Assembly (NCBI GenBank): GCA_036517115.1
Contig: DATDYB010000023.1
Span: forward strand, 2,839-66,838
Length of the DNA stretch: 64,000 nt
Reading direction: 5' to 3'
From: Minisyncoccota bacterium
GTDB taxonomy: Bacteria; Patescibacteriota; Minisyncoccia; Phycocordibacterales; PALSA-1337
The notes beneath the pieces were generated by a model that saw nothing but the letters and a program-made list of their open reading frames with translations, did not search any database and was not told the DNA's origin. Shown in pieces: positions 11,515 to 46,958 of the stretch (position 1 is its first letter; the number at the start of each line of letters is the position of its first letter). The position numbers were made by a program, and so were the translations under genes.

Positions 11515-14500
11515 ATGCGATTTTTCTTTTCCGTATTGTTTGCAATACTGGCTCTATTTCCGTCTAATAATGTATTTGCAGCGGCGGAAACACTATTCCT
11601 AGTTGGCTTTGATGGAACGTTTCAAGATTTTTCAAAAAATGATTCGAGATACATCAATAATAATTTTTTCATTGATGATGATTTTCTTAAGGATAATGTA
11701 CTAGATGGTCGAAAGGAATATACTAAATTTGGAGAGGGTAGCTTGCGAGTGTATGGCTGGCAGGATGGAACTAAGGAGGGAAAGTTTCATGAAACAAAAA
11801 TCAGTTTTCTACCGAAAGAGGATATTGATGTGGGGACCAGCGAATTCACTATAGACTTTTGGGTCTACCCTTTTGTCGATATCACCACAGACAAGAATAC
11901 TGGCAAGTTTTTTGAACTTCTCAATACCAGAAAGAATACTTCCTCGCTGTACCCGAATTCTAATTTAACAATATGGCGAGACAAGGATGCAGGGCGGGGC
12001 AGCAACAAGCCTTACCTTTTATTTACTGAAGATAAATTCTCGGCAGACGGTACTGCCGTGGCGGAAGAGCTACTCAAGGCACAAGCAGGAGATGATGTGA
12101 TCCGAGGTCAATGGAATCATGTTGCGGTACAGAGAAAAAACACCGCGACGGATTCAAAGTTTACCGTTGCGGTGAATGGTAAGATTGGTCCTGCCACATC
12201 AAAGCCTTTGAGTTTCAAAATCCCTCCGATGAATCGGGCGATTTTCAGTAAGTTGAGCAATGTAGTGTACGGCTTCCTCGATGAGGTGCGCGTGGTAAAA
12301 GGCGAAGCCCTATGGGCAGGAGGAGAAGCCGGAAAAACATTCGATATAACCTCGATTACTTCGGCAATCACTCCCGCCATGAAAGGAAGAGCTAGACCAT
12401 TCACTCCCTCATCTAAAATCTTGCCCGAGGATGTGCCTCCTTCATTTGTCATACCATTTGATGACTCACTTGTTGCGAGTCAGGGAGGAACTGTGGCCCC
12501 GGTAGATCCAAAAGTATCTTCCCCGGCAATAGTTAAAGATGTAGACACTCAGGTGGGAAAGGGAAGCGCGTTCTTTGCGGGTGAGAAAAATGGACTGGTC
12601 TACACTGCCTCAGGAAATGAGGTGGATTTGGGTAATGGCAATTTCACCATAGACTTTTGGGTGTTACCTGAATTACTTTCATCCGGCACCGCCGGGGAAT
12701 CTCTTCAGCTGTTCTCTCTTAAAGATAGCTCGAATAAAACCTTTCTATTACAGAGGTATAACTTTACAGGGGATACTAAGACACTTCTGTTCGGACCTGT
12801 TATTGACGCATTTTCTAATCCGAAAAACGCACGTGGTGCAGATGTGAGTCCTACTGGCGTATCTCCATGGTGGCTTGATATTGAAGCGAGGCGCTGGAAT
12901 CATGTTGTAGTCCAAAAAGATGGACCGTATCTGCGCCTTATGATAAATGGTGTCGTAGGTGGTGCCGCGTATTCTGTCCCTTTCACTGGCAAAACTACAC
13001 TAACGATTGGTGGTGTGGCAGCAGCAAGTACCGTCGGAGGGAAAGTCTATCCGTTCAAGGGTTATATCGACCATTTCCGAATTACCAAAGCGGCTCTGTG
13101 GCCAGGTGTAACACGAGGAGACAAGATAGAATATCTAGCTCCGAAAGGAGGTGAACCTGTCATCATAGAGAGGCCAGTAGAGATTGACCCATATGCCAAC
13201 CGTAGTGAGGTACCCGGAAAAGAAGGCATTCCTACATTCCCGAATCTTTCTTCAACCGAAACATCAGAAGAGCGAGACCTTCCGGAAAGAGCAATTGCAC
13301 AAGAGCTGTTGATACAAAATCTGGACGGCTCTCGAGACTATACTAATTATTATGACGATAGAAGCGTCTTAGTAAAGAGCGTCTTTTGGGCAGAAAACAC
13401 CGGCGATAAAAAATTGAAGACGCTGGAGTACGATGCTTCGGGAGAATTATACAAAGAAACACATTTTGGACCAAAGGGCGCTATTGCCGACACGTATTTC
13501 TATTATTCCGCGGCAGATGGCGGTTCGTTGCACAAGGAAATCCTTCGTCGAGGAGACAAAGAGCTCTACACTCGGTTTACCCCACAGGGAAAAATTGCTT
13601 ATGCCCATGAAGTGAAGGGAGGAAAGTATGTCTATTCTAAACATATTAACTATGATCAAAAGGGAAAGGTGCAAGACGATCTCATCATATATGGGCCAGA
13701 TCAATTTGAGAAAAATGTGTATGTGGCGAGCGAACAAACTGGGCAGGTGAGGGAGATTAGAAATTATACAAAGACTCCAGTATCTGCAGATGGCGCTCCA
13801 TACGCATATACTGCAACCCTACTTGAAAACGAAAAAGTTCTTTCTAAAAAGACACTGTACGCGGACAGTAATTTTAACGTGCGAAAAATGGTGCTTTCAT
13901 CATTTGATGCGAGTGGAAAGCACCTGACTATCGAAAGAACGTTTGATTACATCAATAATCTGCAACACTATCTGGAATATCATACCAAGGGTGAAAAAAT
14001 CATCGGCAAGAAAGCATCTGAATACACTTGGAATATAAGCGACGGAGCGTACCGTTCTAAAACTACCTATGACTACAAAGGTCTTGCGGGGACATTTGAA
14101 GCTAAAAACAAAAAGATCGCGGGTAGTGGCCAGCTGCTTCATTATGTGAATGATGACGAAGCTGTCGATACCGATACCACATTTACTTATCAAACCATCG
14201 GCGGAGTAGTGAGCTGGAAAGACAAGACAACCAAGAAGTATGACAAAGATGGCAAGCTTATTAAAGTAACGGTAACGGTATTTAAGGAAAAACCCGAACC
14301 TACGGAAGATTCAATTACCGCCTATGATGGCGATTCAAACAAACTCTCTCTTACACGCTTTAATAACGGCGCGCGTATCTCTACAGAATTTTATGACAGT
14401 TTTGGAAATATTTTCTTTAAAAATAAGTACCAGAATGATGTTTCAGGTGGGTACACAGTCAAGTCATATTATGTTCTTGGTGCCAATGAGATTCCAGCGG

Positions 14501-17500
14501 GGGAAAATACCTATACTGCAGACGGCTCTCTCGCGAGTGATCTCAAGAAAGACGAACTGGCAATGAAAAACTACGGAGACGCACTTCTTGTTTCCTTAGG
14601 TGTCTCCAAGTCAGGACTTACTGCGTCAAACGAGAAAGCTAAACTTCTCGAAGTCTCGAAGAAAATCATAGGAGCATATAAAGAAACGCTCACGAATTCT
14701 TCTGTTGCAGGCTCGAAGCAAAAGAAATACCGAATATATGCAGATTTTGTAAACAAATTAACGGCAGGGGTATTCGCGATTGAGCATGCAGTCTGGGGTG
14801 CTGATCCGGGGAAGTCATTGGTCAACGATCATCAGCTTGAATATACAGCAAAGCCATGGACCGGCGTCGATGCCGCGAGCGGGCAAGAATTTTTTGGAAT
14901 CTACATTATGCCAGGGAGAGTCTCACCTGAGTCGCCTGATGCCGTGTTTATTGACATGGATATTAATAACCCAGCTGTTCTTACTACCGTTCTCGGAGCA
15001 TCTTCATATGACGCACTGAAATCTATTTCAAAAAAGAAGGAAAAGTGGGATTCACTCTCGGTGCTTCCTTCCACGGTATATGGTTCTACGGGCACAACAT
15101 TGTATAGATACAATCTGAGAGCAAACAATGGCACAGGAGCGTATCTCTCACTTAAAGAGCTCACTAAGGCTGATCCGACGATTAACCTTCTGCTAGATCG
15201 TATGCAGAAAGATTTAGGTGCTTCTCTTAGTCCGACACTTTCTGATGAGGAGGTGATTAAGATTTTTTATGAGTATTTCTTCGAGACAAATCTTTTTCAA
15301 TATATCCATGATCTTGGCGACGTGTCGCAAACAGTGAATGAAACATTAACCCGTGGAGGCGGAGACTGCGAGGATTTTGGAATATTTGCAGCTAGCTTAT
15401 TGCACAATCTATTTTTGAGGCTCGATAGGGGAGATGCAGCGGCGCGTGTGGGACTCGGACTTGTACATGTCGATGCTTTCGGAAAGATTTCATCCAAAAA
15501 CGCAGGAGCGGGACACGGTTCTCTTATGTTTAAGGCGAAAAATGGTAGCCACTACTATATTGAGGCGAGCTACCTCTTTACTGGCTCAGCGGGTAGCTAT
15601 GAGTTTAATCGCGACAAGATACTCACCGTCCTCGCTCCGGGAATAGGGGGCGCAGGGGCTAAAACAGGAAAAGTTGAGGTGGTACCTAACGGGTGGTATG
15701 TTGAGGCGCTTACCTTTAATCCGATTGAAGGAGTGACCGAAGCGTTTGCTGCATCTCAATTGTTTTCTGTGAACAAAATAGCACCTTCTCCAGTTGGCAA
15801 AAGTGCTGCAGAGAAAATATCGTCATTGCCGACCTATATCGAGCCATACAATAGAAAAGTGAATGCGCTTGCTGATTCTATCGTCAGATATATTCCACGA
15901 TTTAAAGACAAGACTCCCGAGTATCTAGCGGAATATGTGAATATGGTGATGAAAGAGTACAGCGTTTACCGTGCTGACGGCAGAGGTGATACTTGGGCAC
16001 GTGTCGACGTTACTCTCTCATCGCTTGACGGTATCCGAGGTGATTGTGAAGATCTCGCGTTTGTCGAAGCCAGTCTCTTGCAAAACATTCTCACGAAATA
16101 TTATATGAGCCGTGGGGATCTTTTGGTGAATGCGATGATCAGAGCGCAGGATCATGTAATGGTTATCGCTCAAAACAACTACGGCGGAGTTACGGGTAAA
16201 GCCCATTTGCTCGTAGGGTTTGTTTCCCCTCGTGCCGACAGTGACCTGACGACGGTGCGTCTCATGGATCCCCAAACGGGAGTGATGGAAGCATCGAGAC
16301 CATTTTCTATGTTGTTTACCGATCAGTATCTTTTCTTCGCTAACACGGACAAGATCACGACCATCACCTACTATGATTGGAGTACTCTGAACCTATCTGC
16401 TTCGGTTAAACAATCTGGGGAAGGGAAGAAAAAAACTGAGAAAGTAAAACCCGTGCCAGCAGAAACAGGCGAAGTATTTACAGACGCAGAGATTGATGCG
16501 GCAGCTGCATCAATCCAAAAAAAACAGAACGAAGGAGGGACATTTACCGCCAAGGAAAAGGCCATTTTCGATTATATGAAGGAAGTTTTAGAGTATGAAC
16601 AACGTCTGGATGATATTGGGGGAGAAATCGATGGTTTTGAAAGTATAAATGACAAAGCGGAAGTATTCATCAAAAAAAGTCTGGATACGATAGATGCCGA
16701 TGTTGCTAAAATTGCGGAAAAAGTGGAGCAAGGAAAGACGTCTGAGATAACCGCATCAGATGGCGCTGCGCTTGTCGGTGCCCAAAATAAAGCTCAGGCG
16801 GGTAAAAGTGTTCTACACGACTCAAGCTTGTTTGCCGGATTGGAAGGTGGAGACGGTTCGCAGCCGTTTCCACCAATCGATCTCAATGGGGATTATGTCA
16901 TCTTTGATCTGGAACCTTCTCAGCCGATCGATCTCATCCATCCAGCCCTTGACCCTAGCGCGTGGGGCAGTGACTTTACGCCAGCCGCTCCCGTCCCCCG
17001 ATCTGAAGTGGCACTTCCAGGCTCCGCTCCTGACGGGCCTCCCCCGGGCTTTCGTGTCGACACGAGAATATCTGATTCAAAGTTAACACCTGACCCGATC
17101 GTGAGCCCACAACAGTCATTTGTGAGCGCTGTGGCGAAAGTCTATTACGTATGGCAGATTCCACCAACGCCTATATTTGCTGGACCTGCAATTTCAAACA
17201 ATATGTTGTCGACGATAAATCCTCTTAATGGACAGATTACGTTCTCAACTCCTGTTATACCCACAGGTCTTCTTAACAATAGCTGTCCCAACGGAAACAC
17301 CGTTACCAAACTATGCAGTGATATTCCTGCATCCGCGCGGGTTACCGTCAAACCGGAAAACTCTTATTTTGTAGGCAGGGATACCTGTGCTTCAAGCGTG
17401 AATATTTGTTCGGATGATACTACGTTCAACACTGGTTGGCAGTGCAATCCTGGCTTCATTCCCGCGCGCGGCAAGTGTATAAAAATTGATATTGAGATAG

Positions 17501-19185
17501 AAAAACCTGACGTATGTCCCAATATTGGAGGTACGCAAGCAACCGTACCAGTCGGTAAGATAAAAGACGCGGCGGGGAATTGTGTAGAGCCCCCTGTAGA
17601 TGCGTGTGTAAATATTCCTGACATTCAAAGCTCTGTTCCATCGGGAATGGTACGAGATACCAGTGATCGTTGTGATATCTGTCCTAACATTCCCGAAGCA
17701 CAGATCGAAATTCCGACAGGTATGAGCAAGGATGCGGCTGGCAATTGTGCCTTTCCATCAGTGAACGCCACCGTTTCCCTCGGCTCTTGTGCGCCGGCCA
17801 CTAACCTCACTCCCGCGAACGTTTCAATCGCTCCCGACAAAAAAGCAAAATTGGTCATCCGTACCGCATCTAACGTAATTTCTGAGCTTAGCTCGAATGG
17901 CCAAGTACATCTTCCGCCAGGATCGTATGCGTGGATAGCTACGCCTGAATCAGGCTATGTATTTTCTCCAAGCGTTCCAACTTCAGGCACGCTTACCGCG
18001 AGAGACTGCGCGCCTCCGCCGCCATGCACCTCAAACTGTATCCCTATTATTTCTATCGGTGACACGAGAATAACGGAAGGTAATACCGGCAAGACTAATG
18101 CATCGTTCACGGTCAGTCTATCGAGAGCTGCGACTGCAGCAGTGACTGCGACGTTTACCACCTCCAATGGCACTGCCACGCTAGCGGACAAGGATTATGA
18201 AGCGACTACCGGCTCAGTTTTTCTTGCTATCGGCGAACTCACTAAGACTATTGTTGTCCCGGTTATTGGTGACACTACTGTTGAGCCTGACGAGTCCTTT
18301 ACGGTGACACTCTCGAACCCAAACATCGTCACACTCGGTCGTTCTGTAGCTACGGGTACGATCGTAAACGACGACAGTAGTGGTACCAATGACTCCGATG
18401 TGTGTCCTAACATCGATGGAATCCAAACCTCTATTCCATCGGGAATGACTAAGGATGTGAACGGAAACTGCGTCGGGGGTGGTACAGGAGGATGCCCTCC
18501 GAATTGTCCCGGAGGCGGAACCCCAAGCATCTTCATTGATAATAGTTCCGCTGCAGAAGGTTTTCCAGTGACGTTCATTGTCCGACTCGACAAGGTTTCA
18601 TCACTTCCGGTAACTTTCGCTTACAAAACTACTGATGGTACTGCGAAGGGTGGACCGTCGACAGATAGTAGTAGAGATTACACGTATGTCCCTGTAAGCA
18701 GTGCTACTCTTACTATCCCCGCCAATGTTCTTTCAACTACTGTATCGGTGCCTACTAATGGCGACGATATTTATGAAGTTGATCCGCCTGAAACGTTTAG
18801 CGTCACGTTACTCAGTATTGGAGGCGCCACAATCGGGGATGCAGTGGCGACAGGAACAATCGGCGATGACGATGTGCAATCAGTAAGCTGTAATGTGTAT
18901 GGAAGCGCTGATGCCACCGCCTTGCCGATTACCACCACTTTCATCAACCGCAACACCTATTGGAGAGCGACGGCCACTCCGGCATCTCGGGCAAAGACCG
19001 TATCGTGGACGGGAGGGCCAACCACGGCGGATATCGTTACTGGAGGTGCGCTTAATGCCACCGCCAAATCCTACACAACAGCGGGGAACAAGACCTCCAC
19101 CATCACCGTGAACGGAAAAATCTGGAATAGTCCTAACCCTTGTCCGATACTTCGAGCCATCGATCCGTCGTATAATGAATTTTAA
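11515..19185 (+). CDS. giant secreted multidomain surface protein (2556 aa): 2x LamG-like, YD-like repeats, 2x transglutaminase-like cores, Cys-repeats, 2x Calx-beta, PKD-like C-terminal domain
   Basis: ORF 11506-19185. The likely start is the ATG at 11515 (MRFFFSVLFAILALFPSNNVFA/AAE signal peptide). Domain motifs are given in the findings. TATAAT at 11501-11506 lies 8 nt before the ATG. Confidence 0.85.
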   Translation: MRFFFSVLFAILALFPSNNVFAAAETLFLVGFDGTFQDFSKNDSRYINNNFFIDDDFLKDNVLDGRKEYTKFGEGSLRVYGWQDGTKEGKFHETKISFLPKEDIDVGTSEFTIDFWVYPFVDITTDKNTGKFFELLNTRKNTSSLYPNSNLTIWRDKDAGRGSNKPYLLFTEDKFSADGTAVAEELLKAQAGDDVIRGQWNHVAVQRKNTATDSKFTVAVNGKIGPATSKPLSFKIPPMNRAIFSKLSNVVYGFLDEVRVVKGEALWAGGEAGKTFDITSITSAITPAMKGRARPFTPSSKILPEDVPPSFVIPFDDSLVASQGGTVAPVDPKVSSPAIVKDVDTQVGKGSAFFAGEKNGLVYTASGNEVDLGNGNFTIDFWVLPELLSSGTAGESLQLFSLKDSSNKTFLLQRYNFTGDTKTLLFGPVIDAFSNPKNARGADVSPTGVSPWWLDIEARRWNHVVVQKDGPYLRLMINGVVGGAAYSVPFTGKTTLTIGGVAAASTVGGKVYPFKGYIDHFRITKAALWPGVTRGDKIEYLAPKGGEPVIIERPVEIDPYANRSEVPGKEGIPTFPNLSSTETSEERDLPERAIAQELLIQNLDGSRDYTNYYDDRSVLVKSVFWAENTGDKKLKTLEYDASGELYKETHFGPKGAIADTYFYYSAADGGSLHKEILRRGDKELYTRFTPQGKIAYAHEVKGGKYVYSKHINYDQKGKVQDDLIIYGPDQFEKNVYVASEQTGQVREIRNYTKTPVSADGAPYAYTATLLENEKVLSKKTLYADSNFNVRKMVLSSFDASGKHLTIERTFDYINNLQHYLEYHTKGEKIIGKKASEYTWNISDGAYRSKTTYDYKGLAGTFEAKNKKIAGSGQLLHYVNDDEAVDTDTTFTYQTIGGVVSWKDKTTKKYDKDGKLIKVTVTVFKEKPEPTEDSITAYDGDSNKLSLTRFNNGARISTEFYDSFGNIFFKNKYQNDVSGGYTVKSYYVLGANEIPAGENTYTADGSLASDLKKDELAMKNYGDALLVSLGVSKSGLTASNEKAKLLEVSKKIIGAYKETLTNSSVAGSKQKKYRIYADFVNKLTAGVFAIEHAVWGADPGKSLVNDHQLEYTAKPWTGVDAASGQEFFGIYIMPGRVSPESPDAVFIDMDINNPAVLTTVLGASSYDALKSISKKKEKWDSLSVLPSTVYGSTGTTLYRYNLRANNGTGAYLSLKELTKADPTINLLLDRMQKDLGASLSPTLSDEEVIKIFYEYFFETNLFQYIHDLGDVSQTVNETLTRGGGDCEDFGIFAASLLHNLFLRLDRGDAAARVGLGLVHVDAFGKISSKNAGAGHGSLMFKAKNGSHYYIEASYLFTGSAGSYEFNRDKILTVLAPGIGGAGAKTGKVEVVPNGWYVEALTFNPIEGVTEAFAASQLFSVNKIAPSPVGKSAAEKISSLPTYIEPYNRKVNALADSIVRYIPRFKDKTPEYLAEYVNMVMKEYSVYRADGRGDTWARVDVTLSSLDGIRGDCEDLAFVEASLLQNILTKYYMSRGDLLVNAMIRAQDHVMVIAQNNYGGVTGKAHLLVGFVSPRADSDLTTVRLMDPQTGVMEASRPFSMLFTDQYLFFANTDKITTITYYDWSTLNLSASVKQSGEGKKKTEKVKPVPAETGEVFTDAEIDAAAASIQKKQNEGGTFTAKEKAIFDYMKEVLEYEQRLDDIGGEIDGFESINDKAEVFIKKSLDTIDADVAKIAEKVEQGKTSEITASDGAALVGAQNKAQAGKSVLHDSSLFAGLEGGDGSQPFPPIDLNGDYVIFDLEPSQPIDLIHPALDPSAWGSDFTPAAPVPRSEVALPGSAPDGPPPGFRVDTRISDSKLTPDPIVSPQQSFVSAVAKVYYVWQIPPTPIFAGPAISNNMLSTINPLNGQITFSTPVIPTGLLNNSCPNGNTVTKLCSDIPASARVTVKPENSYFVGRDTCASSVNICSDDTTFNTGWQCNPGFIPARGKCIKIDIEIEKPDVCPNIGGTQATVPVGKIKDAAGNCVEPPVDACVNIPDIQSSVPSGMVRDTSDRCDICPNIPEAQIEIPTGMSKDAAGNCAFPSVNATVSLGSCAPATNLTPANVSIAPDKKAKLVIRTASNVISELSSNGQVHLPPGSYAWIATPESGYVFSPSVPTSGTLTARDCAPPPPCTSNCIPIISIGDTRITEGNTGKTNASFTVSLSRAATAAVTATFTTSNGTATLADKDYEATTGSVFLAIGELTKTIVVPVIGDTTVEPDESFTVTLSNPNIVTLGRSVATGTIVNDDSSGTNDSDVCPNIDGIQTSIPSGMTKDVNGNCVGGGTGGCPPNCPGGGTPSIFIDNSSAAEGFPVTFIVRLDKVSSLPVTFAYKTTDGTAKGGPSTDSSRDYTYVPVSSATLTIPANVLSTTVSVPTNGDDIYEVDPPETFSVTLLSIGGATIGDAVATGTIGDDDVQSVSCNVYGSADATALPITTTFINRNTYWRATATPASRAKTVSWTGGPTTADIVTGGALNATAKSYTTAGNKTSTITVNGKIWNSPNPCPILRAIDPSYNEF
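19159..19182 (+). other. C-terminal tail IDPSYNEF-stop (shared tail motif, copy 1)
   Basis: The last 8 codons of the 2556-aa protein. Confidence 0.7.
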
Positions 19186-19199: not shown

Positions 19200-19532
19200 A
19201 TGAACAAAGCAGCACCATATCTCTTCATACTCTTGGTAATCGGCCTAGTTTCCTATGTCATCGTCGATGAGCAACAAAAGAACACGGTGCAAGGCGAACG
19301 TGCACTCTCGGAATCCTCGATGCGCGGTATTGGTGAAACGCAGGGAGCGCTTGATGCTCTTGCGGATGGTGGGGCGACCAGGGTAGCAGACGATATTAAA
19401 AATATCGATGCGAAAAAAGCTGAAGCCGCGAACATAGATACGCAAGCCACCATTGACCGTCAGGAAAAAGCTGAGAGACTGAGCGAACAGGAGACAATGC
19501 CTGGGAGTGTCGGTGAGTTTAATCCACGATAA
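19200..19532 (+). CDS. small single-pass membrane protein (110 aa)
   Basis: MNKAAPYLFILLVIGLVSYVIV is a TM segment, followed by an acidic/Ala-rich tail. It starts 14 nt after the giant gene. Confidence 0.5.
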   Translation: MNKAAPYLFILLVIGLVSYVIVDEQQKNTVQGERALSESSMRGIGETQGALDALADGGATRVADDIKNIDAKKAEAANIDTQATIDRQEKAERLSEQETMPGSVGEFNPR

Positions 19533-22401: not shown

Positions 22402-22773
22402 ATGAAAAAGTCGCATGTAACTCTTGCTATCGTTGTGGTTGTGATGTTAGTCGCTGTATTTGTGTGGAAAAAAAACGAAGAGAGGCAAGCGCTCATTCTA
22501 TCCAACCCTCCGGTTGAGCAACTTCTTTTTATCAAAAAAATTGGTGGAGAATTTACGTTGGAGCAAAAGCAAACAATTGAGGAATTTAAAGCTAAGCTTT
22601 TGGTGCGGGCGGGGCTTGGAGTAACACTCACCGAGAATGAAAAAGGGATTTTTACCGCGGTCATGTTTGACCAGGCGGCGGTTTTCCCGAACGGCGGAAC
22701 AGTGGTGAACCAATCGGTCTTGAAATTTAGCACGGAAGAAATTGACCTCATTTCCAGTGCGCTTAAAAAGTAA
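22402..22773 (+). CDS. small single-pass membrane protein (123 aa)
   Basis: The ATG at 22402 (MKKSHVTLAIVVVVMLVAVFVWKK) lies within ORF 22309-22773. Its stop codon directly abuts the ATG of the 4010-aa gene (taaATG). Confidence 0.5.
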   Translation: MKKSHVTLAIVVVVMLVAVFVWKKNEERQALILSNPPVEQLLFIKKIGGEFTLEQKQTIEEFKAKLLVRAGLGVTLTENEKGIFTAVMFDQAAVFPNGGTVVNQSVLKFSTEEIDLISSALKK

Positions 22774-36014: not shown

Positions 36015-36034
36015 TCTAAACAATGTCATTCATG

Positions 36035-36064: not shown

Positions 36065-36097
36065 CTTATCTGTTGGGGAAATTCCTCTCGCATGTTC

Positions 36098-36106
36098 TGG
36101 TATACT
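36098..36106 (+). promoter_or_regulatory. extended -10 box TGgTATACT, 7 nt before the pilB ATG
   Basis: ttcTGgTATACTtagcactATG, with no Shine-Dalgarno sequence. Confidence 0.5.
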
Positions 36107-36113
36107 TAGCACT

Positions 36114-39074: not shown

Positions 39075-39554
39075 ATGAAAGATTCAAGATTCAAGATTCA
39101 AGACGATGGCTTTACGCTTATTGAAATGCTGTTGGTGTTGAGCATCCTCATTTTTCTTGCGGGGATCAGTGTGCCCACGTTCTCGAAATTCATGACAACC
39201 AATAACTTAGAAAAAAGTACGGCAAAAGTAAGAGGACTCTTAGAAGAAGCTCGTTCATTAACGCTTGCCTCAAAATACGATACGCAGTACGGTGTTCACT
39301 TTGAAAGTGCCAAGGCGGTGTTGTTTCAAGGTGCTTCATATTCTTCCACTAGTGCCACCAACATTTCCCTCACCTTGCCCTCGAGTGTGCGGATCGGTAC
39401 CACCACGCTTTCCGGAGGGGGTAATGACGTTGTGTTCTCTCGGCAAGCAGGGGGTGTCAGCGCCTACGGCACTACGACACTTTTTCTCCTCGCTAATCCT
39501 GCCCGTATCTCGTCGATCGTGATTTATGGTACAGGACTGACGGAAATTAAATAA
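39075..39554 (+). CDS. prepilin-type N-terminal cleavage/methylation domain protein (GspH/FimT-like minor pilin)
   Basis: MKDSRFKIQDDG/FTLIEMLLVLSILIFLAGI, with G at -1 and E at +5. Confidence 0.8.
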   Translation: MKDSRFKIQDDGFTLIEMLLVLSILIFLAGISVPTFSKFMTTNNLEKSTAKVRGLLEEARSLTLASKYDTQYGVHFESAKAVLFQGASYSSTSATNISLTLPSSVRIGTTTLSGGGNDVVFSRQAGGVSAYGTTTLFLLANPARISSIVIYGTGLTEIK

Positions 39555-39555: not shown

Positions 39556-40068
39556 ATGAAAAAATCTCGGTTAAAATTTTTACATTCTAAATTCCGTATC
39601 TCATATTCTTCGGGCTTTAGTATGGTCGAGATGGTGGTGGGGCTCGGCATTCTTGCAGTTGCTTTCAGTGCTCTCTTCGGCACCTATCGAGCGTATCTTA
39701 AGGCCGCACTTAAGACGACAGATACCTTAAAAGCAGCCTATCTGCTTGAGGAAGGGTTGGAATCGGTTCGACTCCTTCGGGATACCGGTTTTACTGCAAA
39801 TATCGCTCCACTTGCCTCGGGCACTTCCTATTACCTTGCTTGGAGTGGCGGCACGTGGAAATCAACTACCAGCGCGCAAACTATCGACGGGTTTAGCCGC
39901 TCCTTCAGGATCGCCTCGATATATCGTGATGCGAGTCAAGACATCGCTTCTTCCGGTACGCTCGATAACAATACGAAGAAGGTGGACATGATGGTGGCGT
40001 GGACAGGAAGGGGAGCCACCACTACCGAGACGATCTCTACCTACCTTTCTAATATTTTAAACAATTGA
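39556..40068 (+). CDS. prepilin-like protein
   Basis: ...ISYSSG/FSMVEMVVGLGILAVAF, with E at +5. Confidence 0.7.
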   Translation: MKKSRLKFLHSKFRISYSSGFSMVEMVVGLGILAVAFSALFGTYRAYLKAALKTTDTLKAAYLLEEGLESVRLLRDTGFTANIAPLASGTSYYLAWSGGTWKSTTSAQTIDGFSRSFRIASIYRDASQDIASSGTLDNNTKKVDMMVAWTGRGATTTETISTYLSNILNN

Positions 40069-40562
40069 AAGCGACACCTTCCAAAGGAATATCCCTCATC
40101 GAGCTCGTGATCTACGTCGCTATTCTTGCGGTGGCGGTTATAGCGATTACGCGGGTGCTCATTGTCATGACTCGCTCGTATACCTCAATTGTCGTTGCTC
40201 GCGACCTCAACCACTCAGCGCTCGTAGGGTTCGAAACTATGGTGCGTGAAATTCGCGGATCCGCGAGCGTCACTGCCGGCTCGAGTACCTTAGGTGCTCA
40301 TCCGGGCAGGTTAACGACAGCGGCAGGAGCCACGACCACTGAATTTTATATGGCGGGCACGCAACTCATGTTTAGGAAAAACGGTGTGGTCCAAGGGCCA
40401 CTCACGCTGAGCACTGCCCGTGTCACTAACCTCGTGTTTCGCCAAGTGAGTACGGGATCTTCGGAAGCGATAAAAATCGAGATGACGCTTGCAGCCGGTA
40501 CAAGTACTGCAGCTAGATCAGTTAACCTTTATTCGACGGCTATCTTAAGGGGAAGCTACTAA
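40065..40562 (+). CDS. prepilin-like protein
   Basis: TTG start overlapping the upstream stop. MKATPSKG/ISLIELVIYVAILAVAVIAI, with E at +5. Confidence 0.7.
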   Translation: MKATPSKGISLIELVIYVAILAVAVIAITRVLIVMTRSYTSIVVARDLNHSALVGFETMVREIRGSASVTAGSSTLGAHPGRLTTAAGATTTEFYMAGTQLMFRKNGVVQGPLTLSTARVTNLVFRQVSTGSSEAIKIEMTLAAGTSTAARSVNLYSTAILRGSY

Positions 40563-40563: not shown

Positions 40564-41868
40564 ATGAAAAATTTAAAATTTAAAATTAAAAATTTTACTT
40601 TTAACTATCAATCCGGTCAGGCTATGATTACCGCAGTTATCTTTTTCCTTTTTTCGTCGCTGATTATCATGAACGGGGTAAGTACGCCTGTGGTGCGAGA
40701 GGTGATGATTGTGAATGACCTCGTGCGTTCGAAAGAAGGACTCTTTGCGGCGGAAGGAGGAATTGAAGATGTTATATATCGTCTTAAAAACGGTATCACG
40801 GTCTCTTCTTCAGAAGGGGTTTCTTTGAACAACTCAAGGGCAACGACGACCATTACTGATGTGACGGGAGGTAAAACGCTTGCTACTAAGGCAGACCGAA
40901 ACGGTTTTGTTCGCAATGTGCAGGCGGCACTCACGCAGGGGAGCGGAGCCTCGTTTAATTATGGTGTGCAATCCGGCATCGGTGGTGTTCTTCTTGAAAA
41001 CAGTTCCTCAATCATTGGTAATGTATATTCGAATGGGCCAGTCGACGGAGCGGGCTCGAATCTTATAAAAGGTGACGTAGTGTCCGCAGGCCCTTCTGGA
41101 CTGGTAAAAGATATTCATGCTACGAGTTCCGTATATGCGCACACTATTCAAAATGCCGACATCGACAAGGACGCGTATTATGTAAGTATTTCTAATAGTA
41201 CCGTCGACGGCGCAACACATCCGGGAAGTACGGATCAAGCAACCACCACGATGCCCATCTCCGATAGCATGATTACTTCATGGGAGGCAGACGCGCAAGC
41301 TGGAGGTGTGATCTCGACACCATGTCCTTACAAAATCGATGAGGATGTGACCATAGGGCCTAAAAAAATCACCTGTGATCTTGAGATAAGCGGTGATCCC
41401 ACCGTAACGCTCACTGGGAACTTGTGGGTAACTGGAAACGTTACGATACAAAATACCGCTATAGTGAAAGCAAGCTCAAGTTTAGGTAATAATAGTGTGG
41501 CGATTATTGCTGATAAAGCTAGTGATCGTGATGATGGAAGTAAAATTTCTTTGGAAAATAGCGTAGTATTCCAGGGTTCAGGCCAGCCAAATTCATATAT
41601 TCTTTTTATCTCTCAAAACAATGATGCAGAGAATGGGGGAAATAACATTGCTATTGAAGCGAAGAACAGTGTAAGCGGAAAGGTGTTGTTGTATGCCGGC
41701 CACGGTGAAATTTCACTTCAAAACAGCATTAGTATCAAAGAGGTGACTGCGTATCGTATTCGACTTAAAAATAGTGCCTCGGTGATCTATGAGACCGGTA
41801 TCGCGAACCTCCTCTTTTCCTCCGGTCCCTCCGGTGGGTACTCTATTTCTTCGTGGGGTGAAAATTAA
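40564..41868 (+). CDS. large PilX-N-like pilus-associated protein with beta-helix-like C-terminal region (434 aa)
   Basis: The hydrophobic N-terminus SGQAMITAVIFFLFSSLIIMNGV has no E at +5. It is followed by Gly/Asn/Val/Ser-rich repetitive strands (GNVYSNGPVDGAGSNLIKGDVVSAG...). Confidence 0.55.
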   Translation: MKNLKFKIKNFTFNYQSGQAMITAVIFFLFSSLIIMNGVSTPVVREVMIVNDLVRSKEGLFAAEGGIEDVIYRLKNGITVSSSEGVSLNNSRATTTITDVTGGKTLATKADRNGFVRNVQAALTQGSGASFNYGVQSGIGGVLLENSSSIIGNVYSNGPVDGAGSNLIKGDVVSAGPSGLVKDIHATSSVYAHTIQNADIDKDAYYVSISNSTVDGATHPGSTDQATTTMPISDSMITSWEADAQAGGVISTPCPYKIDEDVTIGPKKITCDLEISGDPTVTLTGNLWVTGNVTIQNTAIVKASSSLGNNSVAIIADKASDRDDGSKISLENSVVFQGSGQPNSYILFISQNNDAENGGNNIAIEAKNSVSGKVLLYAGHGEISLQNSISIKEVTAYRIRLKNSASVIYETGIANLLFSSGPSGGYSISSWGEN

Positions 41869-41869: not shown

Positions 41870-42715
41870 TCATTGCGGAAATTCCATCAGTAACATAGAT
41901 GAGTTATAAAAATCTAGAGCTAGAGAACCGAAGCTGTACGCTTGTCCCTTAATCTCAATAAGAGCACCGCCGGAACGAGGATTTGCCTGCGGCGTCGAAT
42001 GTTTGAAGCCAATGTTGTAGAGCGTGGAGAGGATCTCAGGTTTTTTGGAAATATCAAATCCGGCATTTTGCCACTGCACCTCTATCTGTTTGAGAAAAAG
42101 TGCGGCATAGAAATAGGAATAGTAGCGATCTTGTTCGTCCGTGAGACGTTTAAAACGTTCTTCGTCGGGGTCTTCAGTTTCAAATTCCAACATGTGTTTG
42201 TACGGAGGGCCGAGATAATATGGGGAAGTATTGTCCTTAAGATGTTCCTCAATCTCCATCGCCGTTTCCTGTTTGATGCCCATCACACCCCATGAAAATT
42301 TAGACTGATTGCCGAGAATTTTAAGCGGAGCGAAGATTGTCTTAAATAATTCTCGTTCGCTGTGATATAGGCGGAGTTGTTCGACAACAAGGTTAGCGAC
42401 AATGAGTCGGGGAGGCACTCCCGCTGTCTCCGCCGCTCGTTGTATCACTTCCTTGTCATTTCGAACGGCAATTTCGAGCGTCTCCCACTCTGCACCCTTA
42501 TCCCATGTGCGGTTTTTAGCCGATGCTTCGCGAAATGTTTCTGTTTGTGTGTCGATAATACCCGGGCTGTTGGTCCAACCAAGCCGTACCGCGAAATAAC
42601 CAGCGACCAACCCAAAGCCAATGACAGCGAAGCAATATACAAAGATTTTGAGAATCTTCTTCAGCATACAAAGCATTATAGCTTGTTTGAGTGGTGTGTA
42701 TAAGTATGCGTTCAA
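41870..42715 (-). CDS. membrane-anchored hypothetical protein, weak lytic-transglycosylase-like motifs
   Basis: The TM segment is ILKIFVYCFAVIGFGLVAGYFAV (the start may be M17 at 42667). The motifs VVEQ, GVMGIKQETA and LYNIGF loosely recall E / GLMQ / AYNAG of the SLT family. Confidence 0.45.
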   Translation of the reverse strand: MNAYLYTPLKQAIMLCMLKKILKIFVYCFAVIGFGLVAGYFAVRLGWTNSPGIIDTQTETFREASAKNRTWDKGAEWETLEIAVRNDKEVIQRAAETAGVPPRLIVANLVVEQLRLYHSERELFKTIFAPLKILGNQSKFSWGVMGIKQETAMEIEEHLKDNTSPYYLGPPYKHMLEFETEDPDEERFKRLTDEQDRYYSYFYAALFLKQIEVQWQNAGFDISKKPEILSTLYNIGFKHSTPQANPRSGGALIEIKGQAYSFGSLALDFYNSSMLLMEFPQ

Positions 42716-42747: not shown

Positions 42748-45396
42748 ATGAAACTAAAGATTGTGACGGCATGCTGTGTCGGAATCGTATTTCTGGCAGG
42801 CTACGAATATGCGACAGCACAAGTTTTTTCTGTACGGGAATTCGTGATCGATACGCTTGGAAAGCCGGTTGGGCTTATTGAAAATAAAAAAGGTACCTTT
42901 GATCTAGGTCATTCGGAAGGGAAGGTTGTACAAGAATGGACCAACACTAAGGGAGTAATGAAGGACTCCGTAAGTGGAGCAACATGGAGTATAGAATATG
43001 AGAAAAAGGGAGCCAGCAGGCAGGGTTGCAATCCACCAGTTCTTAATATCACCATGAAGGATGCAAAAGGTAAGACAAAACCACTTTTTTTCGGGACAAG
43101 CACTTACCAGAATAATACCGCTTTGAAGTACGCAAAAATCAGGATGGTGCCTGACTGCGAGCTGTGGGGATTCAATATTAATGTATTGCTCCGAGAATAT
43201 TTCGTATATAGCATGCTTCGAAAATTCGGACTACCTATCGTTGATGTGGTCGGTTTTGCGAATGTGACGTTTAAATCTTCTGATGTGGCTGAGTCAGAAA
43301 CATACCGTTATATGCTACTGCAACGAGACAATGAGTCGAAGGATGATATTGCGTTCACTACACAATTTAATTTTTTACCTGATCTGATTGAAGCGAGTGA
43401 TTCAGAAAAAGGTCTCATTGGAGGAATAGAGTATCCGGAAGGAGGAATGACAGTTACATATCAAAGTTCAGGAAAAAGAGGTGGTGAATTTGAAGTTGAT
43501 AATTTGATTCGGGTAGCCTTATTTACTGGGCTTTTTAATATGAATGACCGCTCCCCGTTACATAATGAAGATTATGGTATTGATGTAGCAACAGGAAAGG
43601 TGAAAAAAATTCCTTTTGACTTCGATATGTCGATCGGAAGTCAGTGTTCCGCATCAAATCTTACTTCTTTTGCGCCGAATGATGTAGTGAGAGAGATCAT
43701 GGCACAGGCGCCTCAAGATAAAAAACAACTATATACACAAACTTTGGTTAAAATTAGTAAAGAAATATTCGATACGCAGCAAACGCTCAGTAGTATGCTT
43801 GCTGTAGTTGATCGGTATCCGTTGTCTGATGATAAAAACAAGCTGAAAGAATACCTCAAAAAGAACTTCGGTATTTATGCGACGTATTTCGGATCAAAAA
43901 GATTTACCGATGACATGGCCATCGTTTATACACCGTTTAGTAACCCCGTCAGCGTATCTACAGCAAAGAAAAGTATCGTAGTGCGTTCTCCAAGTGATGG
44001 TGAGACCGTGAACGACCAGTACAGAGGAGAGTATACTGCTACAGGAGTTTCATTTTTCAAGGTGGAAATCATCGATGATAAAGGTAATGCTTCGCCGATA
44101 CGTCAATGGAATCGACGGGGTGTATGCGATGGGGTCTATGATTTCGAATCATGGTACGTAGAGGGACCAATTGACCCGAATGCATATTTCACCATACGTC
44201 TTTCCGATGTTGAGGATCCCGCCGTATACGGAGAAAGTGGCAAGTTCAAGATAAAGTCTACACGAGAATTCGTCGGACCCACGCCTATTCGTGCTATTCC
44301 TGTAGGACCGGCATCGATAAATGTCCTTTCTCCTGTGACAGACGAAGTGCTTGAAAAAGGAAAATCGTATGTTATTAGATACAAAGCCTCGAACATTTTC
44401 GAGATGAACGTGGATCTTATGGACATCAAGGGCAATAAGCTTATCCGAAAAATTGAGACCATACGACCTAATGCATTTGGTGATTTTTATTGGAATGTTC
44501 CTAAAGACCTCGATCTTGAGCGTGATGACTATTTTACTATCCAGATGAGTGACGCGCAGGACCCAAAGGTCAAGTCCAAAAGCGGAAAGTTCAGAATAGC
44601 GGAGAGTCACGAGCCCAGCATGGAGATTATAAGTAGTACGTTTGGGCTTGAATACGATAACAATCGTAAAGAGTCAGGGCTAACCTCGAAGATAAGTGTG
44701 AGTATCACTGCTCATAAAAGTGCTGATTTGATCATTGATAAAGAAGGAATGTTTCTTGTTGGTGCGCTCAGTAAAGAAGTGAATGGAATGTATAATGAAA
44801 CTAAATATACAACTCGCACTCCTGTAGGCCAGGTCGGGACGTCGTACAAAATTCCAGCAGGAACCAATGTGATATTCGACCTCACGACCAGGTTTAATCC
44901 TAAGGCAATGTTCGCGGGTTCCTACCAGGCAACATTGTGGGGGTTTGGATACGGAGAACGCGAGCGGGAGATTGCTGCCAAATACGCACCAGAAAACTAC
45001 TCCAATGCAGTAGTAATTGTTGGTGAAACATCTCCTTATATTATCAACCTCTTCAGCTCTTCTCAGCCTCCTCCCATAGATCAATCGGTAACGATCGTCG
45101 GAGAGAGATTTGGTGTTGGTATGATCGACGTGGCGATCAATGGAAAGAAAATTTCATTATTAGCAAAGAAATTTGGAGCCAAGGGTCTGGATCAGATTGA
45201 GTTTATACCGAAAGATGTGGGTATTGAAGCAGGGTGGATTCAAATACAGATTATGAATTCTGTAGAAGGGAACAGTAATATGTATAATATTGAATTTCTT
45301 CCTGCTAAGGCAGCGCTCGGAACATGGAAAGATCAGTTCGCCAACATACTACAGGCAATCGAAGGAATTTTTAGTACCAAGAACGTCAAACAATGA
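42748..45396 (+). CDS. secreted CotH-like domain protein with two Kre9/KNH-like beta-sandwich modules (882 aa)
   Basis: The signal peptide is MKLKIVTACCVGIVFLAGYEYATA/QV. LREYFVYSMLRKFGLP and FNMNDRSPLHNEDYGIDVATGKVKKIPFDFDMSIG resemble CotH kinase-fold motifs. TATAAT at 42732-42737 lies 10 nt before the ATG. Confidence 0.7.
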   Translation: MKLKIVTACCVGIVFLAGYEYATAQVFSVREFVIDTLGKPVGLIENKKGTFDLGHSEGKVVQEWTNTKGVMKDSVSGATWSIEYEKKGASRQGCNPPVLNITMKDAKGKTKPLFFGTSTYQNNTALKYAKIRMVPDCELWGFNINVLLREYFVYSMLRKFGLPIVDVVGFANVTFKSSDVAESETYRYMLLQRDNESKDDIAFTTQFNFLPDLIEASDSEKGLIGGIEYPEGGMTVTYQSSGKRGGEFEVDNLIRVALFTGLFNMNDRSPLHNEDYGIDVATGKVKKIPFDFDMSIGSQCSASNLTSFAPNDVVREIMAQAPQDKKQLYTQTLVKISKEIFDTQQTLSSMLAVVDRYPLSDDKNKLKEYLKKNFGIYATYFGSKRFTDDMAIVYTPFSNPVSVSTAKKSIVVRSPSDGETVNDQYRGEYTATGVSFFKVEIIDDKGNASPIRQWNRRGVCDGVYDFESWYVEGPIDPNAYFTIRLSDVEDPAVYGESGKFKIKSTREFVGPTPIRAIPVGPASINVLSPVTDEVLEKGKSYVIRYKASNIFEMNVDLMDIKGNKLIRKIETIRPNAFGDFYWNVPKDLDLERDDYFTIQMSDAQDPKVKSKSGKFRIAESHEPSMEIISSTFGLEYDNNRKESGLTSKISVSITAHKSADLIIDKEGMFLVGALSKEVNGMYNETKYTTRTPVGQVGTSYKIPAGTNVIFDLTTRFNPKAMFAGSYQATLWGFGYGEREREIAAKYAPENYSNAVVIVGETSPYIINLFSSSQPPPIDQSVTIVGERFGVGMIDVAINGKKISLLAKKFGAKGLDQIEFIPKDVGIEAGWIQIQIMNSVEGNSNMYNIEFLPAKAALGTWKDQFANILQAIEGIFSTKNVKQ

Positions 45397-46958
45397 AAAA
45401 TATTATCCTTATCGCAGCCATCCTCGTCCTCGTCTCGCCATTAACAACATGGGCTGAAGGGAACTGTCTCATTCTCCGCGAGACGATGCGGCTTCGTTCG
45501 GACGATGATCGCACTAAAGGAGAAGTTTCTAAACTCCAGAATTTTCTCAAAGCAAGAGGATATTTTAACGCTGAAATTTCGGGATTTTACGGGAAAGCTA
45601 CTGCGGAAGCCGTACTTAGTTTTCAAAGAGCCAATAACATTGCTCCTGCCGGTGGGAGTGCATGGGTCTCAGCCGTAGTAGGTAAGCAGACGCAGGCAAA
45701 GATAGCGTCGCTTACTTGTAAAACAGCAACCATTAAAGACGCGGCGCCTACACTCACACCTGTTGTCAGCACCCCTCTTTCCGCTACTCCTCTCGAGGTT
45801 TCAACCACAGGTTCATTTACGCTAACTTTTCTCACTTCACCGACTGAGTGGCTTCCTGCCACTACCAAAGCTATTACCTGGACAACCATTGCCGGGGTCG
45901 TCATTCCGTATGTAAAGATAGATCTTTATAAAAATGGTGTTTATGATCGGTCGATCACCACGAGCGCATACAACTACGGAACCTATACATGGAAAGTACC
46001 TTCCGATCTTCAAAGTGCTACCAGGTACACTATTCGTGTGAGCAGTCTTTCAGGCCTCCAGGCCACTGAAACAAAAAGTTATTTTACTGTGCCCACTGTT
46101 ACGGTAGCAGCACCAGTTACGGTACCGACACAAACTGGCACTACGCAGCCCACGGAGAGTACCATCGTCCCTCTCTCGGCAATGTGCTCCGCCAATGTCT
46201 CCACTATAGCGACTAATGGAGAAGTGCTGTGGACGGTGAGACCAGTGGGTGGATCAGGAAGCTACACCTACTCATGGAATGACACCGATGGTGTAATAGG
46301 TGCGTCGCCTACCTCAGTAACCTACGCAAGGATCTATACCACTGTCGGTACTAAAACCGTGAACGCTCTTGTCATGGATGCTGCTGGAAAATATACTCCT
46401 GCTTCCTGTGGTTCAGTTACCGTGACGGCACCCGTTACGACGTATTCGACGGGCAACACTGGATACTCTACTGGAAATACAGGCAGTACAGGAAATACGG
46501 GGGTGTCCGGCATCCCGAACCTCTTTCCATCCACTCCTGCAGTATCCGGTAACGGCTCGCCGAGCGGTGCCCTACAGGCTGGAACTATGACTGTCACGGG
46601 TGGTGTGGCGAACAACGGTACGGCGACCGCAGGGGCATCGACCGTGCAACTTAAATATTCTCAAGATGGTGTGAATTATTACGACTGGGTGACGCAATCC
46701 ATATCCTCCGTTGTGCCGGGCTCTCTTCAGTCGTTCTCTTATACTTGGCAAGGTGGTGTTGGTGTTTGGTATGTCAAAATGTGTGCCGATTCTACCAATG
46801 CTGTTACAGAGTCTAACGAATCGGACAATTGTTCAGTGGGTACAAGGTTTGACGTGGTGGCGTCTGTCTCAAAGGGCGGCGGCAAACTCATGGCAAGCGT
46901 CAGCAATGCAATTGGCAGCATCATTCGTTTTCTGGGAAAGCAAGGGGCCGTCGAATAG
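45393..46958 (+). CDS. secreted protein: PG_binding_1, Kre9/KNH-like, PKD-like and CARDB-like domains (521 aa)
   Basis: ATGA overlap with the upstream gene. The motifs are VSKLQNFLKARGYFNAEISGFYGKATAEAVLSFQ, GSGSYTYSWNDTDG and WYVKMCADSTNAVTESNESDNC. Confidence 0.75.
   Translation: MKNIILIAAILVLVSPLTTWAEGNCLILRETMRLRSDDDRTKGEVSKLQNFLKARGYFNAEISGFYGKATAEAVLSFQRANNIAPAGGSAWVSAVVGKQTQAKIASLTCKTATIKDAAPTLTPVVSTPLSATPLEVSTTGSFTLTFLTSPTEWLPATTKAITWTTIAGVVIPYVKIDLYKNGVYDRSITTSAYNYGTYTWKVPSDLQSATRYTIRVSSLSGLQATETKSYFTVPTVTVAAPVTVPTQTGTTQPTESTIVPLSAMCSANVSTIATNGEVLWTVRPVGGSGSYTYSWNDTDGVIGASPTSVTYARIYTTVGTKTVNALVMDAAGKYTPASCGSVTVTAPVTTYSTGNTGYSTGNTGSTGNTGVSGIPNLFPSTPAVSGNGSPSGALQAGTMTVTGGVANNGTATAGASTVQLKYSQDGVNYYDWVTQSISSVVPGSLQSFSYTWQGGVGVWYVKMCADSTNAVTESNESDNCSVGTRFDVVASVSKGGGKLMASVSNAIGSIIRFLGKQGAVE

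Follow-up and report, generated by a model that had tools for sequence, protein, structure and literature searches.

The window analyzed here is a 64,000-nucleotide stretch of contig DATDYB010000023.1 (assembly GCA_036517115.1) from a Minisyncoccota bacterium, and our subject is the run of envelope genes at positions 11506-46958, in which three giant secreted proteins (G1, G2, and G3) lie upstream of a type IV pilus (T4P) operon. The map of open reading frames (ORFs) places 15 genes between nusA and tpiA, of which 14 share the plus strand and the remaining one (41870-42715) has the opposite orientation; coordinates below are those of the window and refer to the plus strand unless stated otherwise. 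This map, together with hydropathy, bears out the run of envelope genes that an initial annotation, made from the sequence alone, had described. The left flank, nusA (10219-11361, minus strand; Pfam NusA_N, KH_5, and S1), is conserved and diverges from the island, and the conserved right flank, tpiA (47109-47870), is followed by pgk. Several metagenome assemblies from groundwater or aquifers contain the window sequence at 99.97-100% identity, and four samples were compared. The initial annotation had gone on to read the whole island as one dedicated attachment apparatus. That reading was overstated, as the island is composite: a recurrent evolutionary link to the pilus supports it in part, whereas apparently separate transcription units and empty slots in relatives do not. 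The description that best fits the data is an accessory surface-protein slot that is evolutionarily linked to the pilus operon.

The interval between nusA and pilB, which we call the slot, spans 24 kb in the window and contains, besides the three giants, two small membrane proteins of bitopic type and a secreted protein of 304 amino acids (aa). The giants have the sizes first given for them (2556, 853, and 4010 aa) and the N-terminal hydrophobic segments expected of Sec signals; hydropathy profiles of the secreted proteins of the island each show one hydrophobic segment, at the N-terminus, and none at the C-terminus. G1 (11506-19185) is a secreted protein of 2559 aa, or 2556 aa from the probable start ATG at 11515. 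It runs from its signal peptide through two LamG domains, a YD-like beta-rich region, two transglutaminase-like "GDCED" cores, Cys-rich repeats, two Calx-beta domains, and a PKD-like domain to a C-terminal tail, IDPSYNEF (19159-19182). G2 (19621-22182; 853 aa, with a probable start at 19651 and a public call of 843 aa) consists of a signal peptide, CARDB repeats, a PKD-like domain, and the tail IDPTFKEI (22156-22179). G3 (22774-34806; 4010 aa, with a probable start at 22807 and a public call of 3999 aa) has a signal peptide, two Cys-rich TSR-like repeats, Flg_new_2, CARDB, and fn3 domains, a series of super-repeats, and the tail VNPTFKEI (34780-34803). Residues ~1400-3800 of G3 contain about five copies of a 400-600-aa super-repeat that are 30-60% identical to one another, apparently an old repeat architecture and not a recent duplication. 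Most module labels of the initial annotation stand, since matches above Pfam thresholds include Laminin_G_3 (two copies) and Calx-beta (two copies) in G1, CARDB in G2, G3, and the downstream protein p521, and Flg_new_2 (InlB B-repeat-like) and fn3 in G3. The "TSP1-like" label in G3 corresponds only to a sub-threshold PTN_MK_C match (E=0.004), and the "PKD-like" label is based on alignment, with no Pfam match. As first described, each of the first two giants is followed by a single-pass protein: tm1 (19200-19532; 110 aa) has an N-terminal transmembrane (TM) helix and an ectodomain of ~85 aa ending in EFNPR, and tm2 (22402-22773; 123 aa) has one N-terminal TM helix and gave no detectable homolog in homology searches. 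The 304-aa protein that had been placed before pilB and pilC is likewise present; p304 (35100-36014) gains a signal peptide from its GTG start, is preceded by the ribosome-binding site AAAGGAGA (35089-35096), and has neither a family match nor a homolog in any of the relative loci fetched below. The five island genes whose public annotation we looked up (tm1, G2, tm2, G3, and the pilin-like gene p434; VJH55_02870-02920) are all listed as "hypothetical protein".

The giants possess the traits of fibrillar adhesins in that G3 has a repeated stalk and G1 has putative binding domains (LamG and Calx-beta), yet Pfam, NCBIfam, and hydropathy reveal no recognized cell-surface anchor in any of them, only the tail. 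A sortase- or exosortase-type signal is absent, as the giants have no C-terminal hydrophobic segment, the chain ends 0 residues past the tail, and no NCBIfam sorting domain is found; none of the NCBIfam sorting-signal models matches the tail itself. Nor do the giants resemble RTX adhesins of type I secretion systems, for there is no HemolysinCabind match, the island has no transporter genes, and signal-peptide-like N-termini are present. The shared tail noted in the initial annotation is real and, within the window, exclusive to G1-G3: the three endings fit the pattern [DN]P[ST][FY]xE[FI]-COOH, and among all six-frame ORFs of at least 40 aa only these three end in P[ST][FY]xE[FI]. Alignment shows the tail to be an 8-residue extension past the last strand of the PKD-like domain. 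The copy of this domain that lies inside p521 continues without a tail, and the last domain of G3 differs from the PKD-like domain, yet has the same tail.

The pilus module that follows p304 was also correctly recognized. The product of pilB (36114-37859) is an assembly ATPase of T4P or type II secretion system (T2SS) type (Pfam T2SSE, 2e-120, and MshEN) that scores 523 bits against the NCBIfam type IV-A PilB model TIGR02538, below the equivalog cutoff of 676. The platform protein encoded by pilC (37862-39073) has two T2SSF domains (1e-52), matches to GspF/PilC models, and three TM segments. Of the four prepilin-like genes annotated, pil1 (39075-39554; G/FTLIE) and pil2 (39556-40068; G/FSMVE) pass the N_methyl model, and pil3 (40065-40562; G/ISLIE) falls 1 bit short (20.2 against a cutoff of 21.2). 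The fourth, p434 (40564-41868), is a large pilin-like protein with the N-terminus G/QAMIT, which is without Glu5, and has no Pfam or NCBIfam match. The first three have canonical class III prepilin sites of the form G/(F/I)xxxE, weakly resemble GspH, ComGD, and XpsI in NCBIfam, and look like minor pilins of the GspH/I/J type. A pilin N-terminus without Glu5 is a trait of tip subunits such as GspK, and we propose that p434 is a GspK/PilX-like tip pilin. Relatives keep it at the end of the pilin cassette, with homologs that are 34-49% identical in L006, L008, L012, L015, L020, L091, and other loci.

For comparison with relatives, we fetched 80 genome loci and 80 metagenome loci around pilB with 10-kb flanks, and the ~50 loci whose PilB is at least 50% identical to that of the window were mapped against the window proteins. 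The nearest named relatives by PilB identity (59-75%) are Taylorbacteria, Nomurabacteria, and other Paceibacteria, and the metagenome scan yielded no relative above 74%. An arrangement of nusA on the opposite strand, then pilB, pilC, and the pilins, then tpiA, pgk, and farther on recJ is widely conserved in the Paceibacteria relatives; in most of them no gene separates tpiA from the pilin cassette, and nusA adjoins either pilB or the slot in 18. This comparison shows that a conserved pilus operon lay ancestrally between nusA and tpiA-pgk in Paceibacteria, and that the slot upstream of pilB is variable, with occupants that are secreted and frequently tail-bearing, and has expanded to 24 kb in the window. 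The slot is empty, with nusA abutting pilB, in 11 loci (L007, L008, L017, L019, L025, L089, L091, L094, L095, L098, and L100). Elsewhere it holds one or two genes co-oriented with pilB, several of which encode large signal-peptide proteins with a related tail, and in several relatives it consists of one secreted protein of 0.8-2.3 thousand aa (kaa). Tail-bearing signal-peptide proteins of 0.5-2.3 kaa that end in P-x-[FYI]-x-E-x-COOH or a close variant are found directly upstream of pilB, and co-oriented with it, in at least eight relatives. One class of tails begins with KKP, in L006 (783 aa, KKPSFIED), L015 (2296 aa, KKPSFIEN), L097 (1007 aa, KKPVIIED), L020 (1263 aa, KKPLFQEQ), and L099 (partial, KKPFFIEN). 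The others are those of L012 (1713 aa, SSIFFEEF), L088 (564 aa, FDPDFEEF), and L170, which has two slot proteins with signal peptides, of 541 aa (FDPTLEEF) and 747 aa. Signal peptides are present in all of the occupants whose sizes are given here. A 251-aa neighbor of the L015 protein was considered as a partner family and rejected, being a TPR protein.

When 3295 ORFs of at least 120 aa from ~170 loci were searched with the tail pattern P.[FYWIL].E.$, only 15 genes matched; all 15 lie in pilB-relative (Patescibacteria-type) loci and none in the loci of other phyla, and a signal peptide is found in every one of the 15 whose N-terminus is present. A profile of the C-terminal domain plus tail of G1 and G2 gave 31 matches among 1.84 billion representatives. 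Four of the 31 end in a tail (P0002, IDPTFREI; P0077, IPDFEEF; P0079, NPNWVEF; P0082, DPKYQEI), and at least 8 have a hydrophobic TM segment and then basic residues at the C-terminus, the form of a conventional membrane anchor. These data suggest that the tail substitutes for a membrane anchor. P0082, which was retrieved without anchoring on pilB, lies two genes upstream of pilB: in L170 the order is the 541-aa tail protein, P0082, a 166-aa bitopic TM protein, and then pilB, pilC, the pilins, and tpiA. The family of this 166-aa protein is also present beside the tail proteins of L088 and L012. We rejected a third class of tails, represented by proteins of ~570 aa around pilB that end in CYQxEVY (L102-L104), as these have Zn-ribbon N-termini and no signal peptide. 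As a separate observation, L022, L103, and L104 encode a DsbA-like bitopic protein (~128 aa) and a VKOR/DsbB-like protein with four TM segments (~182 aa) ~2-3 kb upstream of pilB, next to such Zn-ribbon proteins, which are cytoplasmic and stand outside the tail class.

The closest counterpart of the giants themselves is in Taylorbacteria. G1 has one true homolog, P0006, in a Taylorbacteria metagenome-assembled genome (46% identity), and tm1 has only two homologs among 5.8e9 proteins, one of which is encoded between homologs of G2 and G1. The order in this Taylorbacteria locus (L167) is a G2 homolog (976 aa; 47% identity over 296 aa; tail VVNPEFQEF), a tm1 homolog (109 aa; 35% identity, E=7e-15; ending in RFNP, where tm1 ends in EFNPR), and the G1 homolog. 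The giant/small TM/giant cassette is thus partially conserved in another genus, with a permuted gene order. All four Taylorbacteria contigs end inside the G1 homolog, so that the comparison covers the upstream side of the cassette. Upstream of it (L167, 794-4096) are genes for a dockerin-containing secreted protein and for a cohesin-containing protein whose C-terminus consists of a hydrophobic segment and basic residues; together they make up a split-anchor pair of cellulosome style in a candidate phyla radiation (CPR) genome. A 6.7-kb ENA contig, P0029, seemed to represent a relative with 96% identity and was rejected, since it carries 53 aa of G1 only: it encodes a 1953-aa protein of an unrelated organism whose last 53 residues are identical to G1 residues ~184-236, most likely as a result of chimeric assembly.

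Signals in the intergenic regions bear on whether the giants and the pilus are expressed together. Two terminator-like hairpins follow G3, at 34835-34865 (z=-4.55) and 34940-34960 (GCCCT-AATCA-AGGGC, then T6), and a promoter-like TTGCAA-17-TATAAT sequence (34988-35016; a consensus match only) precedes p304. A further, strong hairpin resembling an intrinsic terminator lies between p304 and pilB (36034-36059); it has a 10-bp stem with seven GC pairs and a T6 run, a predicted energy of -21.1 kcal/mol, and z=-5.78, and none of 200 shuffled sequences folds as well. No comparable hairpin is found 3' of G1 or G2. These features suggest at least three plus-strand units, G1-G3, p304, and pilB-p434, in place of one operon. 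Several transcription units are likely because the putative terminators stand both after G3 and between p304 and pilB, which argues against tight coupling of the giants to the pilus. In front of pilB itself there is a -10-like TATACT ~8 nt upstream of the ATG (36095-36116) and no obvious ribosome-binding site, and the mRNA from which pilB is translated may be leaderless or nearly so.

The island also contains a second insertion, private to this lineage, between the pilins and tpiA. It comprises m281, p882, and p521, which, CARDB and PKD-like domains aside, have no equivalent in the relatives. The only minus-strand gene, m281 (41870-42715), encodes a membrane-anchored protein and is a lineage-specific insertion; its description as a possible lytic transglycosylase is weakly supported by a sub-threshold DUF1402 match (20.9 bits against a cutoff of 27). 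The next gene, p882 (42748-45396), likewise lineage specific, encodes a secreted protein with Ig-like repeats, and the CotH-like label given to its N-terminal region is weakly supported by a match below threshold (14.3 bits, where the cutoff is 23.8; E=0.029). The secreted product of p521 (45393-46958) does have the peptidoglycan-binding and CARDB domains ascribed to it (PG_binding_1 and CARDB, both above threshold), along with the tailless PKD-like domain mentioned above. The sole length difference among the four metagenome samples is a 6-bp indel in p521 (519 versus 521 aa, in the comparison with L003), probably in an STGNTG repeat at ~46400-46470.

Taking these lines of evidence together, we lean, with moderate confidence, toward an island of two layers, namely a conserved pilus core and a set of surface-protein giants that are held by their tail and act beside the pilus in host contact. 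The giants would be exported by Sec. G3 would form a stalk of ~40 Ig-like domains, and G1 would contribute the LamG and Calx-beta modules for binding and, possibly, cysteine enzyme cores of transglutaminase type. The tail, in the form [DN]-P-x-[FYW]-x-E-[FI]-COOH, would retain the giants at the surface in place of a TM helix or a sortase signal by docking non-covalently to a partner, with tm1 and tm2 as the foremost candidates and the minor-pilin complex as the alternative. The pilus would supply reach, retraction, and probably DNA uptake, and the giants, transcribed apart from the pilus operon and acting beside the pilus and not as its part, would supply lineage-specific contact with host cells. 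The presence of comEC (Competence and DUF4131; 52923-54470) and recJ (50094-51818) 3-6 kb downstream of the pilus operon agrees with a role of the pilus in DNA uptake; the location of recJ after tpiA-pgk is kept in relatives. In this sense, the island is a plausible host-attachment toolkit whose link to the pilus recurs in relatives and is not obligatory. A bolder extension is that the two forms of the tail, the one just given and KKP-x-[FI]-x-E-[DNQ]-COOH, constitute a signal for surface retention or sorting in Paceibacteria that has not been described before and would tether Sec-exported giants to small bitopic anchors or to the minor-pilin tip complex and make the slot an exchangeable host-specificity cassette. 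We regard this extension as tentative and, in its full form, doubtful. If it is true, the content of the slot would predict the hosts to which an uncultured Paceibacteria lineage can attach.

A number of observations weigh against the two-layer reading, and several of them favor the alternative that the slot is only a hot spot that accepts insertions of fast-evolving surface-protein genes, and that the giants are independent envelope or adhesin proteins whose adjacency to the pilus has no functional meaning. The initial annotation had proposed to check whether giants with the same tail, small TM genes, and the pilus operon co-localize in relatives, and the outcome of this comparison is mixed. 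On the positive side are the tail proteins at pilB in eight lineages, the Taylorbacteria cassette, and the bitopic TM family beside tail proteins in three lineages. On the negative side, the 11 empty slots indicate that the giants are dispensable for the pilus, and elsewhere the occupants vary in size and family. The giants are nearly without homologs: searches with G2, G1, and tm1 gave 4, 2, and 3 matches, respectively, and the other G1 matches involve Calx-beta only. The tail protein P0077 has RF-1, rpsB, and tsf as its gene neighbors and no pilus gene in the vicinity, and the Taylorbacteria cassette is flanked upstream by spoU, fpg, and the dockerin/cohesin genes and not by nusA. The putative terminators between G3, p304, and pilB point the same way, and the insertion of m281, p882, and p521 shows that the neighborhood accepts cargo. 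With respect to the proposed docking partners, tm1, tm2, and the TM family of L012, L088, and L170 are mutually non-homologous (kinship of tm1 and tm2 with that family was rejected, since only the TM helices align), and L006 has no small TM gene adjacent to its tail protein. We infer the adhesin role of the giants from domain types alone, and the retention role of the tail and the identity of its docking partner are likewise proposals. In addition, none of the ORFs of the 64-kb window encodes PilD, PilM/N/O, PilT, or an obvious major pilin, which may have their genes elsewhere in the genome, and thus the function of the pilus cannot be judged from the locus alone.

What keeps a hot spot without functional meaning viable is the often empty slot, the apparently separate transcription, and the one tail protein that has no linkage to pilB. 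We nevertheless consider it rather unlikely given the distribution of the tail. The strict tail [FY]xEx-COOH ends 6 of 87 genes in the chains upstream of pilB, compared with 3 of the 611 remaining genes of these loci (odds ratio 15, Fisher p=2e-4, a value that ignores relatedness among the genomes and comes from loci mostly sampled via pilB). Thus, tail-bearing secreted proteins are ~15-fold enriched directly upstream of pilB relative to other positions. Furthermore, those found there invariably share the orientation of pilB, the association holds for two classes of tail and recurs in lineages as distant as 59-69% PilB identity, and P0082, found independently of pilB, turned out to lie beside it again.

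The same adjacency could be taken further, in that the giants may be coupled directly to the pilus, either displayed on it in the manner of PilY1/PilC or handled by PilB and PilC like T2SS substrates, with the tail adding as a strand onto a tip made of pil1-pil3 and p434. Including the window, tail proteins adjoin pilB, co-oriented, in at least nine lineages. They also occur mainly with the p434-type pilin cassette, in 7 of 20 loci compared with 1 of 21 loci with an alternative cassette (p=0.018, confounded by phylogeny), and in L097 a paralog of a pilus protein of that alternative (~600/200/480-aa) cassette lies just upstream of the tail protein. In Pseudomonas, Neisseria, and Myxococcus, PilY1/PilC are large non-pilin proteins that are exported by Sec, have minor pilin genes as neighbors, and are credited with a role in adhesion. 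The giants resemble them in these respects, but are 2-4 times larger, consist of Ig-like repeats, have terminators between themselves and pilB, and are missing from many relatives that retain the pilus operon; the PilY1/Neisseria_PilC beta-propeller has no Pfam or NCBIfam match in G1, G2, G3, p304, or p434. Direct display at the tip is less likely because of the ordinary Sec signals, the lack of a PilY1 domain, and the accessory domain of p434. With ordinary Sec-type signals in a presumably monoderm organism, no pilus-type secretion step is needed, and the large C-terminal domain of p434 could itself be the tip adhesin, as proposed for PilX1 and PilX2 of Saccharibacteria. A 4010-aa stalk on the tip of a retractile pilus would also be mechanically awkward, and the transcription units are apparently separate. 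We therefore judge direct coupling to be quite improbable and retain the view that the giants act beside the pilus.

Among Patescibacteria, T4P with large tip pilins serve in binding to the host (PMC11623550), a role that is either proposed or shown for the phylum. T4P are required for host binding by Saccharibacteria, in which large minor pilins have been proposed as tip adhesins (PMC11623550). The two systems of Nanosynbacter lyticus TM7x, T4P-1 and T4P-2 (PMC11623550, PMC9894109), share with the window the succession of PilB, PilC, and pilins with GFxxxE-type signals and one large pilin with an accessory domain, the proposed tip adhesin. The window differs in belonging to Paceibacteria and in having an operon with minor-pilin-like genes only and, upstream of it, giant tail-bearing non-pilin proteins, which descriptions of the Saccharibacteria T4P loci do not include. 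A precedent for a closer connection is found in Omnitrophota, where giant genes are preceded by T2SS/T4P-like loci (bioRxiv 10.1101/2023.11.21.568195). There, as in the window, very large surface proteins recur together with a GspE/GspF/pilin-type locus in ultra-small host-dependent bacteria. The Omnitrophota proteins, however, exceed 30,000 aa and have C-terminal TM anchors and SecA-like domains, and their locus has more than 10 genes, including a secretin, in another phylum with another type of envelope; the giants of the window have 0.85-4 kaa (853-4010 aa), N-terminal Sec signals, and a short tail, with neither a secretin nor SecA-like domains.

The Omnitrophota giants have been proposed to digest the walls of prey (bioRxiv 10.1101/2023.11.21.568195), which raises the question of whether G1, m281, and p882 are mainly hydrolytic or cross-linking effectors that act on the host or on the cell's own wall, with the Ig-like repeats as spacers. 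G1 contains two GDCED motifs (Cys1288 and Cys1514; 15360-16100, residues ~1285-1530), and the Taylorbacteria homolog P0006 retains Cys1288, His1337, and Glu1353 unchanged. This region is also the best conserved part of G1, with 59% identity to the homolog compared with 46% overall, and may amount to two transglutaminase-like cysteine enzyme cores embedded in an "adhesin". The PG_binding_1 domain of p521 would likewise suit proteins that act on a wall. However, every enzymatic assignment is below its family threshold: the transglutaminase-like region of G1 (residues ~1270-1600) matches DUF553 at E=0.017 and Transglut_core at E=0.2, both short of the cutoffs, and the m281 and p882 matches are the sub-threshold ones given above. 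Searches of PDB sequences with the G1 core, p882, and m281 gave no meaningful match, and both structure models are unusable, with AlphaFold2 (AF2) confidence (pLDDT) values of 36.6 for G1 residues 1201-1640 (from a 3-sequence alignment) and 41.7 for m281 (from a single sequence). For G1, these values also weigh against the enzymatic element of the two-layer reading. As G2 and G3 show binding- or stalk-type domains only, we find it highly improbable that attack enzymes account for the island as a whole.

Retention of anchorless secreted proteins by a separate, small anchored partner has parallels among known surface systems. In cohesin-dockerin scaffolds and in the WxL/Csc clusters of Firmicutes, anchorless secreted proteins are encoded beside small anchored partners and are retained non-covalently. 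The parallel with tm1 and tm2 is an analogy only, as the giants have no dockerin, cohesin, or WxL domains and the tail comprises only ~8 residues; the dockerin and cohesin genes of the Taylorbacteria locus lie upstream of the cassette and not in the giants. Among CPR bacteria, multi-kaa giants and fibrillar adhesins with PKD, fibronectin-like, or Ig-like repeats in reduced genomes are a further likeness, and in Vampirococcus lugosii giant surface proteins together with T4P and ComEC have been proposed to function in attachment and DNA uptake (PMC8080830). That work reports no shared tail, small TM neighbors, or fixed position at pilB. The combination of giant surface proteins with T4P and ComEC is therefore an already recognized CPR theme, and the tail motif is the novel lead: in the literature searched, we found no description of the tail shared by the occupants, of a fixed-address slot at pilB in Paceibacteria, or of the small bitopic companions. 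How hosts are recognized and held is obscure for nearly all environmental Patescibacteria. A variable, fast-evolving slot at the fixed and readily found nusA-pilB address would provide a practical handle for comparing host-recognition repertoires from metagenomes, and the tail offers a concrete and testable hypothesis for how giants may be retained in monoderm-like cells that use neither a sortase signal nor a TM anchor for them.

The relatives also vary at other points of the pilus locus. Two alternative cassettes follow pilC, consisting either of three small pilins and a p434-like protein or of proteins of ~600, 200 (ending in ..RNLKDNL), and 480 aa. The p434 type is found in L006, L012, L015, L020, L091, L094, and L099, the ~600/200/480-aa type in L007, L009, L011, L014, L019, L022, L024, L025, L060, L089, L093, and L098, and L092 has both in tandem. 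The junction between pilB and pilC tolerates insertions, as small genes are present there in L170, L014, L023, and L104; those of L170 (14673-15160; 75 and 87 aa) resemble a toxin-antitoxin pair. In a clade of more distant Paceibacteria (L023, L026, L027, L107-L112, L114, and L117), two genes ~1.5 kb upstream of pilB encode a protein of ~316 aa with two TM segments that ends in FWFTLPxK and a CheY-like receiver of ~124 aa. They are a probable two-component pair and sit where closer relatives have nusA or a surface protein. The remainder of the window is made up of housekeeping genes (rny, clpP, tig, ppa, pgk, recJ, rnhA, comEC, sodA, rpsL, rpsG, and fusA), among which there is a ParE-toxin-like ORF (6235-6528; Pfam 3.9e-8).

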